In this document: positions 35,740 through 40,039 of the stretch, in pieces
Layout: each line of letters begins with the position of its first letter
Position numbering within the stretch: the first letter of the stretch is position 1
NCBI RefSeq assembly: GCF_003790525.1
Contig: NZ_CP033635.1
Length of the DNA stretch: 64,000 nt
Source: Escherichia coli
GTDB lineage: Bacteria; Pseudomonadota; Gammaproteobacteria; Enterobacterales; Enterobacteriaceae
Reading direction: 5' to 3' (one strand)
Made by a program: the position numbers and the translations under genes
The notes under the pieces: generated by a model
Database searches by the model: none
The model's input: the letters and a program-made list of their open reading frames with translations, nothing else
What the model was told of the DNA's origin: nothing

Positions 35740-37044
35740 ATGGATCTGTATATTCAGATTATCGTGGTGGCGTGCCTGACGGGTATGACATCGCTTCTGG
35801 CGCATCGCTCGGCAGCCGTTTTTCATGACGGTATCCGCCCGATCCTGCCGCAACTGATTGAAGGCTATATGAACCGTCGCGAGGCGGGGAGTATCGCTTT
35901 TGGTCTGAGCATTGGTTTTGTGGCCTCGGTGGGGATCTCTTTTACCCTGAAAACCGGGCTGCTCAACGCATGGTTACTCTTTCTTCCTACCGATATCCTC
36001 GGCGTACTGGCGATAAACAGCCTGATGGCGTTTGGTCTTGGCGCTATCTGGGGCGTGTTGATCCTTACTTGCCTGTTGCCGGTAAACCAGCTGCTGACCG
36101 CGCTACCGGTGGATGTATTAGGTAGCCTCGGGGAATTAAGCTCGCCGGTGGTTTCAGCTTTTGCACTCTTCCCGCTGGTGGCGATTTTCTACCAGTTTGG
36201 CTGGAAGCAAAGTCTGATCGCCGCCGTGGTGGTACTGATGACCCGCGTGGTCGTCGTGCGCTATTTCCCACATCTTAACCCTGAATCCATCGAAATCTTT
36301 ATTGGTATGGTGATGCTGCTGGGGATCGCGATAACTCACGACCTGCGTCATCGTGATGAAAATGACATTGATGCCAGCGGGCTTTCGGTGTTTGAAGAAC
36401 GCACGTCACGGATTATCAAAAACTTACCGTATATCGCCATCGTGGGAGCATTGATTGCCGCCGTTGCCAGCATGAAGATTTTCGCCGGTAGTGAAGTGTC
36501 GATCTTCACTCTGGAGAAAGCGTACTCCGCAGGCGTAACGCCGGAACAATCGCAAACACTAATCAACCAGGCAGCTCTGGCGGAATTTATGCGCGGGCTG
36601 GGTTTTGTGCCGATGATTGCCACCACCGCGCTAGCCACCGGCGTGTATGCAGTTGCGGGCTTTACCTTTGTTTATGCGGTGGGCTATCTCTCGCCGAATC
36701 CGATGGTTGCAGCGGTATTAGGCGCAGTGGTTATTTCGGCGGAAGTCCTGCTGCTTCGTTCGATCGGCAAATGGCTGGGGCGCTACCCGTCGGTGCGTAA
36801 TGCGTCGGATAACATCCGTAACGCCATGAATATGCTGATGGAAGTGGCGTTGCTGGTCGGTTCGATCTTTGCAGCAATCAAAATGGCGGGCTATACCGGA
36901 TTCTCTATCGCAGTTGCCATTTACTTCCTCAACGAATCCCTGGGCCGTCCGGTACAGAAAATGGCGGCACCGGTCGTGGCAGTAATGATCACCGGTATTC
37001 TGCTGAATGTTCTTTACTGGCTTGGCCTGTTCGTTCCGGCTTAA
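35740..37044 (+). CDS. yhfT: Inner membrane protein YhfT (putative transporter)
   Basis: 434 aa, multi-pass hydrophobic; translation recognised. Confidence 0.88.
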   Translation: MDLYIQIIVVACLTGMTSLLAHRSAAVFHDGIRPILPQLIEGYMNRREAGSIAFGLSIGFVASVGISFTLKTGLLNAWLLFLPTDILGVLAINSLMAFGLGAIWGVLILTCLLPVNQLLTALPVDVLGSLGELSSPVVSAFALFPLVAIFYQFGWKQSLIAAVVVLMTRVVVVRYFPHLNPESIEIFIGMVMLLGIAITHDLRHRDENDIDASGLSVFEERTSRIIKNLPYIAIVGALIAAVASMKIFAGSEVSIFTLEKAYSAGVTPEQSQTLINQAALAEFMRGLGFVPMIATTALATGVYAVAGFTFVYAVGYLSPNPMVAAVLGAVVISAEVLLLRSIGKWLGRYPSVRNASDNIRNAMNMLMEVALLVGSIFAAIKMAGYTGFSIAVAIYFLNESLGRPVQKMAAPVVAVMITGILLNVLYWLGLFVPA

Positions 37045-37055
37045 GGAAGGCACCT

Positions 37056-38141
37056 ATGAAGACGTTTCCTCTGCAAAGCCTGACGCTTATTGAGGCGCAG
37101 CAAAAGCAGTTTGCGCTGGTGGATAGCATTTGTCGCCATTTTCCCGGCAGCGAGTTTCTTGCTGGCGGTGATTTAGGCTTAACGCCGGGGCTGAATCAAC
37201 CGCGCATTACCCAGCGAGTGGAACAGGTGCTGGCTGATGCATTTCACGCACAGGCTGCAGCGCTGGTACAGGGCGCGGGTACTGGCGCGATCCGTGCGGC
37301 GTTGGCGGCTTTGCTCAAACCGGGGCAGCGTCTTCTGGTGCATGACGCGCCTGTTTACCCGACGACTCAGGTCATTATTGAGCAGATGGGGCTGACGCTT
37401 ATTACTGCTAATTTCAATGACCTGTCGGCACTTAAGCAGGTCGTCGACGAGCAACAACCGGATGCGGCGCTGGTGCAGCATACGCGCCAGCAGCCGCAGG
37501 ACGGCTACATTCTGGCAGATGTGCTGGCAACGTTGCGCTCGGCAGGTGTTCCAGCCTTAACCGATGATAACTATGCGGTGATGAAGGTGGCGCGCATTGG
37601 CTGTGAATGCGGGGCGAATGTCTCGACATTTTCCTGCTTCAAGCTATTTGGGCCAGAGGGTGTTGGCGCGGTGGTAGGCGATGCCGATGTTATTAGCCGG
37701 ATTCGCGCCACGCTCTATTCCGGCGGCAGCCAGGTTCAGGGCGCGCAGGCGCTGGAAGTCTTGCGTGGTCTGGTGCTCGCGCCAGTGATGCACGCGGTGC
37801 AGGCGGGGGTATCTGAACGGTTGCTGGCTTTGCTTAACGGCGGCGCGGTGGCGGAAGTGAAAAGCGCCGTCATTGCCAATGCACAGTCGAAGGTATTGAT
37901 TGTGGAGTTTCATCAGCCGATTGCCGCCAGAGTGCTGGAAGAGGCGCAGAAACTCGGTGCCTTGCCTTACCCGGTTGGTGCAGAGTCGAAATATGAAATC
38001 CCGCCGCTCTTTTATCGACTTTCCGGAACGTTTCGCCAGGCGAATCCGCAGTTAGAACATTGCGCGATTCGCATTAACCCAAATCGCAGCGGTGAAGAGA
38101 CGGTATTGCGGATTTTGCGCGAGAGTATTGCCGACGTTTAA
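37056..38141 (+). CDS. yhfS: Putative PLP-dependent enzyme YhfS
   Basis: 361 aa; translation recognised. Confidence 0.88.
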   Translation: MKTFPLQSLTLIEAQQKQFALVDSICRHFPGSEFLAGGDLGLTPGLNQPRITQRVEQVLADAFHAQAAALVQGAGTGAIRAALAALLKPGQRLLVHDAPVYPTTQVIIEQMGLTLITANFNDLSALKQVVDEQQPDAALVQHTRQQPQDGYILADVLATLRSAGVPALTDDNYAVMKVARIGCECGANVSTFSCFKLFGPEGVGAVVGDADVISRIRATLYSGGSQVQGAQALEVLRGLVLAPVMHAVQAGVSERLLALLNGGAVAEVKSAVIANAQSKVLIVEFHQPIAARVLEEAQKLGALPYPVGAESKYEIPPLFYRLSGTFRQANPQLEHCAIRINPNRSGEETVLRILRESIADV

Positions 38142-38171
38142 TTCTGGGAACGATGTTTTTCGAAGAGTATG

Positions 38172-38207
38172 GAGAAAAAATACGCCCTCGGAAAATCTCG
38201 AGGGCGT
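38172..38207 (-). terminator. Intrinsic terminator downstream of yhfL (stem CGCCCTCG / CGAGGGCG, T-run on minus strand)
   Basis: 8 bp GC stem 38183..38206 with A-run 38172..38181 on plus strand (T-run on minus). Confidence 0.55.
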
Positions 38208-38247
38208 CAGGCAATTAAATCAGCATCTGCCAATTTCTGTCAGAGAC

Positions 38248-38415
38248 TTACTGTGCAGTAGGACCGCAACCGCCAATGATTTTAGAAATAGAAATAGCTG
38301 GGTGCAGCAGGTAGTCGTAAGAGCAGTTCTTATCACGGTTTTCAATATGACCAGTACATGCAGTTAACGTAGCCAGTACCGCACCTACCAGTGCAACTTT
38401 AATAAATTTGTTCAT
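38248..38415 (-). CDS. yhfL: Small lipoprotein YhfL (55 aa)
   Basis: Hand-translated minus-strand ORF: MNKFIKVALVGAVLATLTACTGHIENRDKNCSYDYLLHPAISISKIIGGCGPTAQ (lipobox LTAC). Below ORF-track size cutoff. Confidence 0.88.
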   Translation of the reverse strand: MNKFIKVALVGAVLATLTACTGHIENRDKNCSYDYLLHPAISISKIIGGCGPTAQ

Positions 38416-38629
38416 TTACATTCCCTATGTATTATATATTGATTAATATTCATTGATTATATGAATATAAGCAGACTGCTCATTAAGAATGATACAGGAA
38501 TATTTAATTGGCGTCAGTGAACGAATGACTTAATTTTGTAAGTCGCTGTAACGGTGAATATAACCCATTAGCAGATAATATTTATTAAGGGGGGTATTTT
38601 TATCTGCTGAATATATAAAGAGAGTTGTA

Positions 38630-38656
38630 AACGAAAAAGGCCAGAATTCTCTGGCC
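38630..38656 (-). terminator. Intrinsic terminator of nirBDC-cysG operon (stem GGCCAGA / TCTGGCC, T-run on minus strand)
   Basis: 7 bp stem 38639..38656, AAAAA on plus strand at 38634..38638, 10 nt downstream of cysG stop. Confidence 0.6.
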
Positions 38657-38665
38657 CTGGTTAAA

Positions 38666-40039
38666 TTAATGGTTAGAGAACCAGTTCAATTTATCGCGCA
38701 GGCCAACAACCCGACCAATAATAATTAGCGATGGACTGTTCATTTGCTGCGCCAGTTCGCCCAGCTGCGTGAGCGTACCGTCAATCACGCGCTGCGTGAC
38801 TGCCGTTCCGTTTTCGACAATTGCCACCGGCATTTCGCCAGGCATACCGTGTTCAATCAGCTTTTGCTGAATAGTCGCGGCCTGATTCAACCCCATATAG
38901 AACACCAGCGTCTGTTTTTCTGCCGCCAGGTTTTCCCAGTCCAGTTCGCCACCGGTTTTTAAGTGTCCGGTAATTAAGCGTACGCTCTGGGCATAATCGC
39001 GATGCGTGAGCGGAATACCCGAATAGGCAGAGCAACCAGAAGCTGCGGTAATACCCGGAACCACCGAGAACGGAATGCCTGCATTGCACAGTGTTTCCAG
39101 CTCTTCGCCACCACGGCCAAAAATAAACGGATCGCCGCCTTTCAGTCGCACCACGCGTTTGCCTTTTTGCGCTTCCCGCAGCAGGATCTGGTTAATCTCT
39201 TCCTGCGGTACGCAGTGGTATCCCGCGCGTTTGCCGACGAAAACGCGATCAGCATCGCGGCGTACCAGATTCATAATATCGTCAGAAACCAGACGGTCGT
39301 AGACCACCACATCTGCCTGCTGAATTTGTTGCAGTCCTTTCAGTGTCAGCAGCCCGGCATCGCCCGGACCTGCGCCAACCAGCACCACTTCACCGCGATG
39401 GTCGAGCGGTTCGTTGATTAATTGTTCGGTCGTTTCAGTAATGGCTTTCTGATCGTTGTTTGCCAGCGACTGCGCCAGACGGTCATTAACGAACAGTTTT
39501 TCCCAGAAACGGCGACGTTCACCCATTGTGGCGAACTGTTGTTTCACTCGACCGCGTAATTGCCCGGCGTATTTCGCTACCTGGCCCAGATGCAACGGCA
39601 GCAGTGATTCAAGTTTTTCACGCAACAGGCGTGCCAGAACCGGAGAGGTGCCGCCAGAGGAGACCGCGACCATGAGCGGTGAGCGGTCAATAATTGACGG
39701 CATAATAAAGCTGGCGGCTTTCGGCGCATCGACCACGTTACAGAAGATGCGACGAGCTTCAGCGGCTTCACTGACGCGCTGGTTAAGCGCGTCATCATCT
39801 GTCGCTGCAATCGCCAGCCAGCAGGTGTCGAGAAGGCTTTCATCAAATGGCCCTTCGACGAGGGTTAACATGCCTGCATCTGCCCATGCGGTGAACTGTG
39901 GAATAAACGCTAATGCATTCACCGTTAAGCGAGCGCCTGCGTCTAACAGCAACCTTGCTTTGCGTTCCGCGACATCACCACCGCCGACAATCAGACAGTC
40001 GCGATCGCGTAATTGGCAAAATATAGGCAAATGATCCAC
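38666..40039 (-). CDS. cysG: Siroheme synthase (uroporphyrinogen-III methyltransferase / precorrin-2 dehydrogenase / ferrochelatase)
   Basis: 457 aa; translation recognised. Confidence 0.96.

Follow-up and report, generated by a model that had tools for sequence, protein, structure and literature searches.

The AT-rich spacer of 250 bp that lies between cysG and yhfL in Escherichia coli SMS-3-5 is very probably an ordinary, vertically inherited piece of the core genome, which holds the terminator of the nirBDC-cysG operon at one end and the promoters of yhfL at the other. Within it we find a terminator hairpin that is conserved across Escherichia, promoter hexamers, and agreement between these hexamers and transcription start sites mapped in another E. 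coli strain, and the spacer as a whole is conserved in single copy. At the cysG-proximal end, the intrinsic terminator would end transcription of nirBDC-cysG, and the yhfL-proximal 150 bp would act as a promoter stack for monocistronic yhfL, with starts about 66, 35 and 8-10 nt before the ATG and the sequence AGGGA after them. Such AT-richness is typical of promoter DNA of this kind; it would let RNA polymerase carrying sigma-70 or sigma-S bind without an activator, and it would also make the spacer a target for H-NS, the silencer of AT tracts. Because the proximal 150 bp are near-identical to those of E. coli K-12, we infer that the signals function in SMS-3-5 as they do in other strains. The spacer is already known biology: RegulonDB covers it, and it appears in SELEX and start-site data published for other E. 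coli strains.

The locus and its base composition

The DNA analysed, hereafter the window, is a stretch of 64,000 nucleotides, of which positions 38100-38800 match the chromosome of E. coli SMS-3-5 (NC_010498.1) at 100%. The RefSeq annotation and the list of open reading frames agree on the layout of the locus: yhfT (35740-37044) and yhfS (37056-38141, with its stop at 38141) are on the plus strand and are followed, on the minus strand, by yhfL (38248-38415), which encodes a 55-amino acid lipoprotein of the YhfL family (DUF4223), and by cysG (38666-40039, 457 amino acids, stop codon at 38666-38668), beyond which lie nirC, nirD and nirB, all on the minus strand. The spacer, at 38416-38665, is exactly the 250-bp gap between the cysG stop and the yhfL start, as the first-pass annotation had described it. 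Its GC content is 31.2%, 21 points under the window mean of 52.3% (standard deviation 4.8% among 250-bp windows), and no more than 0.16% of 250-bp windows have so low a value.

The sole comparably AT-rich stretch in the window is the spacer between yhgF and feoA (approximately 2290-2626, down to 29.6% GC), which is likewise long, promoter-bearing and placed between co-directional genes, and which has been tabulated with an RpoD promoter and H-NS binding (PMC3946193). Both spacers hold the terminator of an upstream operon and the promoter of a downstream gene, and both are flagged for HNS in the same table; they share the build of the Type-B (co-directional) AT-rich spacers with 'constitutive' RpoD promoters and H-NS sites (Shimada et al., 2014), of which yhgF-feoA is an example. 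They differ in that the feoA spacer is under well-studied control by Fur and FNR, whereas yhfL has no established regulator of its own.

Short direct repeats had been singled out earlier in the spacer. The quoted string, TTGATTAATATTCATTGATTATATGAA, does exist, at 38439-38465, and ATTGATTA occurs twice, at 38438 and 38452, 14 nt apart. However, among 1000 dinucleotide-preserving shuffles 20% had an exact direct repeat of at least 8 nt at that spacing, which means that the repeat is no more than is expected by chance in DNA of this composition.

A probable terminator at the cysG end

A pattern scan and RNA folding place an intrinsic (Rho-independent) terminator for cysG, or for nirBDC-cysG as a whole, at 38634-38658 on the minus strand. 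Its hairpin, AGGGCCAGA-GAAT-TCTGGCCTT followed by TTT, begins 8 nt past the cysG stop codon and has a GC-rich stem of 9 bp and a loop of 4 nt, with the stem-loop occupying 38637-38658 and the T-run 38634-38638; the cysG terminator that had been assigned to 38630-38656 was thus essentially right. The fold has a predicted free energy of -14.3 kcal/mol (z -3.9), and none of 200 shuffled sequences was equally stable.

The hairpin is kept in every Escherichia lineage that we aligned. In the divergent lineage E69 a C-G pair is replaced by U-A, a compensatory change, and in Escherichia SCPM-O-B-8794 there is a G-U wobble; among the eight sequences, double-sided changes are seen at three of the nine pairs, and the hairpins of Citrobacter are out of register. 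The segment combines a stable hairpin and a U-run with a structure that is maintained through compensatory change, and like canonical Rho-independent terminators it has a GC-rich 9-bp stem, a 4-nt loop and a U-run just past the stop codon. It departs from them in its U-tract (UUUUUCG here, UUCUUAAU in K-12), a short and broken run of 5 U of which two lie inside the stem, and this may make the efficiency of termination modest.

Probable promoters and translation start of yhfL

A consensus scan of the yhfL strand returned a single sigma-70-like site, CTGACG-17-TATCAT, with 9 of 12 consensus positions matched. Shuffled sequences would be expected to give 2.8 such sites, so that by the scan itself the spacer is not enriched in promoters. 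The assignment gains its strength from start sites mapped in other strains: in O157:H7 EDL933, Cappable-seq (PMC10469882, Table S5) gives two starts for yhfL, 66 and 8 nt before its start codon, and the RegulonDB v10.5 values for MG1655 that are tabulated in the same paper are 137, 35, 15 and 10 nt upstream. In that tabulated yhfL entry, EDL933 has the -66 and -8 starts alone, without those at -137, -35, -15 and -10, and the RegulonDB values may include computational predictions. Within the portions of the published start-site and 3'-end supplementary tables that we searched, the entry in PMC10469882 is the only one for yhfL, and neither cysG nor yhfL has a Term-seq entry there.

Mapped onto the window, these positions define three promoters on the minus strand. 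The first, P(-66), spans 38489-38517, with its -35 element CTGACG at 38517-38512 and its -10 element TATCAT at 38494-38489, separated by 17 bp; the scan predicts a +1 at 38481-38482, and the -66 start of EDL933 corresponds to G38481, 7 nt past the -10 element. The second, P(-35), spans 38456-38486 and consists of TTAATG (38481-38486), a 19-bp spacer and TATAAT at 38461-38456. Its counterpart in K-12, TTAACG-19-TATAAT, was proposed from genomic SELEX with the RpoD holoenzyme (PMC3946193), and the RegulonDB start at -35 maps to about A38450, 5 nt past the TATAAT. The third, P(-8), spans 38423-38436, with a second TATAAT at 38436-38431 as its -10 element, and the -8 start of EDL933 corresponds to G38423, again 7 nt past it, leaving a very short leader; the RegulonDB starts at -10 and -15 are counted with this promoter. 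The start at -137 in K-12, according to the RegulonDB value as tabulated in PMC10469882, would lie at 38552 on the minus strand, adjoining the conserved block GTTACAGCGACTTACAAA (38534-38551).

The spacer thus carries -35 and -10 hexamers of the sigma-70 type at distances within 16-19 bp, together with a further TATAAT, and for two of the -10 elements there is a 5' end about 7 nt downstream, as placed on this sequence from data for another strain. The K-12 spacer is moreover bound by the RpoD holoenzyme (PMC3946193) and selected by the RpoS holoenzyme (PMC5493296) in genomic SELEX. Together these observations bear out the suggestion of the first-pass annotation that a yhfL promoter lies in the spacer. 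The CTGACG of P(-66) does not vary among the eight aligned Escherichia sequences, but other hexamers are not identical between strains. The -10 of P(-66) reads TATCAT in SMS-3-5, nearer to consensus than the TATCGT (as in K-12 and O157) or TATTGT of the other seven aligned Escherichia sequences, and the -35 of P(-35) reads TTAATG, further from consensus than the TTAACG of K-12.

Translation of yhfL would start from a Shine-Dalgarno sequence, AGGGA (38426-38422), that is separated by 6 nt from the ATG at 38415-38413, the whole element spanning 38413-38426 on the minus strand as read from the sequence. The surrounding region, TAGGGAATG, is kept across Escherichia, and a core of (A/C)(A/G)GGA is the sole element kept by other genera. 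A start-stop pair, ATG-TAA (AATGTAAATG, 38413-38421 on the minus strand), directly abuts the yhfL ATG. The divergent Escherichia lineages have AAA in place of the TAA, which would add two in-frame codons to yhfL (MKMNKF...). The spacing from the Shine-Dalgarno sequence favours the annotated ATG.

Conservation and distribution of the spacer

Of 5426 complete E. coli genomes, 5421 contain a match to the spacer, as a single copy (5458 places in 5423 records, with a median of one per genome). A repetitive or mobile element, such as REP, BIME, ERIC or the remnant of an IS, would be expected in many copies, and we rejected this candidate on that count. One genome, that of E. coli KFu022 (NZ_CP091677.1, a river-water isolate), has an IS1A inserted in the spacer at the equivalent of about 38544, which cuts off the yhfL promoter region and leaves the cysG-proximal 122 bp as the only part that still matches.

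We aligned six E. coli alleles with two divergent Escherichia lineages and two Citrobacter sequences, the representative alleles of the spacer being 244-254 bp long. In K-12 MG1655 the corresponding region (b3368-b3369, NC_000913.3 3499202-3499447) has the same flanking genes, terminator hairpin and Shine-Dalgarno sequence, and the promoter hexamers are the same but for SNPs. It is 246 bp long rather than 250, with a 4-bp deletion in the U-tract of the terminator and about ten substitutions or indels in the linker, and over the whole length it is 92-93% identical to the spacer of SMS-3-5. Most of the difference of about 7-8% falls in the distal 100 bp: the proximal 150 bp are 97.3% identical, and the terminator segment, with its 4-bp indel, is 83% identical. 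Three of the four SNPs in the proximal part fall within promoter elements (TATCGT vs TATCAT, TTAACG vs TTAATG) or the 5'-UTR. The least conserved segment is the variable AT-rich linker that runs, on the minus strand, from the terminator to the promoter region (38566-38633), which is 84.6% identical to K-12 over 64 bp, 78% to O157 and approximately 51-53% to the divergent Escherichia lineages.

Because its divergence from K-12 equals that of the third codon positions of cysG (93.2% identity; cysG overall differs by 2.4%), the spacer taken as a whole drifts about neutrally, with its promoter part under constraint. In the two divergent Escherichia lineages only the proximal 65 bp remain 88% identical, alongside 94% nucleotide and 83-84% third-codon identity in cysG, and the blocks GCTTATATTCATATAATCAATGAATATTA, TCACTGACG, GTTACAGCGACTTACAAA and TAGGGAATG survive with one or two substitutions each.

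The order cysG-yhfL is maintained throughout the Enterobacteriaceae, and is found in Citrobacter, Enterobacter, Leclercia, Lelliottia, Cedecea, Buttiauxella, Pseudocitrobacter and Hafnia, where the spacers measure 124-333 bp (507 bp in Hafnia) and have 28-47% GC. Apart from the Shine-Dalgarno sequence, spacers from outside Escherichia could not be aligned with those within it, and footprinting across genera yielded no deeper conserved motif. As regards the gene itself, Citrobacter youngae ATCC 29220 carries a pair of yhfL-like genes, each on its own scaffold, of which only one adjoins cysG, and the YhfL family therefore has paralogues in some genera. Homologues of YhfL with 57-84% identity also occur on contigs of metagenome-assembled genomes labelled Bacillota and Rickettsiales, which are most likely mis-binned or contaminating.

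Possible repression of yhfL

The alternative that survives best is that the AT-rich core serves mainly as a platform for repressors, with H-NS filaments nucleating on it, a Nac operator lying over the -10 boxes, or both, so that yhfL would be silent outside certain conditions. It is compatible with the reading of the spacer as terminator and promoters, and we consider it a serious possibility that falls somewhat short of probable. The K-12 spacer was flagged as H-NS-bound in genomic SELEX, in vitro (PMC3946193), and upon induction of Nac no gene is repressed more strongly than yhfL (0.008-fold), the assigned ChIP-seq peak lying in the vicinity (PMC5217608). However, when we convert the coordinates from U00096.2, the peak falls at about 38733 of the window, inside the 3' end of cysG and approximately 280 bp from the palindrome described below.

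We scanned for regulator sites with consensus sequences. For H-NS, the high-affinity motif is TCGATAAATT; the spacer has the AT-richness that H-NS prefers (31% GC), but its best matches to this motif reach only 8 of 10. The best match in the neighbourhood, GCGATAAATT (9 of 10, 38688-38697), lies outside the spacer, in the 3' end of cysG and near the converted position of the Nac peak. For Nac, the minimal consensus ATA-N9-TAT occurs once in 38380-38860, at 38446-38460, and overlaps the TATAAT at 38456-38461; against this, we estimate that about 0.4 such matches are expected by chance per 250 bp of the composition of the spacer. Scans of the spacer for Fur, CRP, NarL and Lrp sites gave no matches, and those for FNR (8 of 10), the ARG box (14 of 16), IHF, ArcA and Fis-like sites gave weak matches that are as expected in AT-rich DNA and were set aside.

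The Nac-like sequence lies within a perfect 8-bp inverted repeat, the palindrome ATATTCAT-N7-ATGAATAT (38446-38468), which overlaps the -10 box of P(-35), is part of the 66-nt leader of P(-66), and belongs to the best-conserved stretch of the spacer (GCTTATATTCATATAATCAATGAATATTA). Every E. coli allele keeps this repeat, and E69 and SCPM-O-B-8794 each differ from it by a single change. An inverted repeat as long as this arises in 8% of shuffles, and its presence is not significant alone. It is a candidate operator or, alternatively, a candidate hairpin in the 66-nt leader. That a specific regulator uses it as an operator to switch the orphan lipoprotein YhfL off seems to us improbable, and Nac is the only candidate regulator for which there are any data. 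A Nac site at the palindrome is suggestive, and we treat it as a lead and not as a finding; if true, it would tie yhfL to nitrogen limitation. More generally, H-NS, and possibly Nac, would be presumed to repress yhfL in SMS-3-5.

RNA and coding potential

It is very unlikely that the spacer encodes an RNA or a peptide of its own, whether as a small RNA, a structured 5'-UTR of yhfL (a riboswitch or thermosensor) or a small open reading frame. The palindrome at 38446-38468 could form an 8-bp hairpin in the 66-nt leader, but the leader as a whole folds no better than shuffled sequences (z -0.77, with 42 of 200 as stable), and its sequence is not conserved outside Escherichia. The linker contains a 9-bp inverted repeat, AGCAGATAA and TTATCTGCT at 38570-38578 and 38600-38608, which is perfect in SMS-3-5 and folds better than shuffles (z -3.1); the K-12 version contains a single mismatch and E69 and SCPM-O-B-8794 lack the repeat, which is thus specific to the strain. 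Rfam covariance models, run over 37900-39000 on both strands at E <= 1, gave no matches. The ATG-TAA pair that directly precedes the yhfL ATG might count in favour of such a reading. We rejected the five small open reading frames (12-19 codons), which lack a ribosome-binding site and fall where conservation is poor.

Relation to the frl operon

In K-12 the frlABCDR operon is inserted downstream of yhfL, between yhfL and yhfS, and it is absent from SMS-3-5. The first-pass annotation had placed the spacer next to the junction of a deletion of frl, and two parts of this description need correction. Firstly, the breakpoints of frl lie at approximately 38150-38170, between the yhfL terminator and the yhfS stop at 38141 and some 250 bp from the spacer. 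The yhfL terminator, an intrinsic terminator on the minus strand (38182-38207; -18.1 kcal/mol, z -4.2), stands between yhfL and the site of frl insertion, and the spacer is consequently set apart from the junction by both yhfL and its terminator. The comparison with K-12 had been proposed as the means of deciding the matter, an identical spacer with frl variation confined to the other side of yhfL being what would speak against a connection. The spacer is not identical, its differences following strain lineage and sitting in the distal, non-promoter part; the frl breakpoints are indeed confined to the other side of yhfL.

Secondly, the polarity implied by 'frl-deleted' is probably wrong. The 106-bp spacer between yhfL and yhfS (38142-38247) is uninterrupted and colinear with that of E. 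albertii and of the divergent Escherichia SCPM-O-B-8794, and no remnant of frl was found in it when SMS-3-5, E. albertii and SCPM-O-B-8794 were aligned. A contiguous yhfL-yhfS junction is present in 2064 of 5426 E. coli genomes (38%), including ST131, and yhfL and yhfS are also adjacent in Citrobacter, Superficieibacter, Buttiauxella and an Enterobacter. Because the arrangement without frl is common to 38% of E. coli, to E. albertii and to other genera, it probably represents the ancestral, empty state of the site, into which frl was inserted in some members of the species, as judged from these comparisons. The pattern could also have come about through recombination-driven spread of frl or its repeated precise loss, and in this respect it is relevant that E69, a divergent Escherichia lineage, has frlA after yhfL.

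For the cysG-yhfL spacer itself, we compared alleles with and without frl. The two sampled strains that lack frl are 94-95% identical to SMS-3-5, and K-12, ARL09/232 and O157, in which yhfS is not adjacent to yhfL, are 91-93% identical; the alleles track lineage and not frl status. These data bear on the weakest of the alternatives, namely that the AT-rich spacer is foreign or rearranged DNA, either a scar or remnant of frl loss or a horizontally acquired islet. The GC content 21 points under the window mean, the true absence of the frl operon from SMS-3-5, and a divergence from K-12 of 7-8%, against 2.4% for cysG overall, might each be taken to point that way, but the near-universal presence of the spacer in genomes with or without frl, a divergence equal to that of the cysG third codon positions, breakpoints beyond the yhfL terminator, an frl-less junction that is colinear with E. 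albertii and common to other genera, and the ancient synteny of cysG and yhfL leave it scarcely credible, and we rejected it. No sequence derived from frl or from a mobile element was seen inside 38416-38665.

Conclusion

The cysG-yhfL spacer is best regarded as a terminator and a set of promoters in AT-rich DNA of the core genome, and its analysis in SMS-3-5 matters little beyond what is on record for other strains, since its outcomes are negative or corrective: there is no link to frl, the direct repeat is at the level of chance, and the site without frl is best read as ancestral. The last of these, the reading of the locus as an ancestral empty site, matters only for annotating the presence and absence of frl across E. 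coli.
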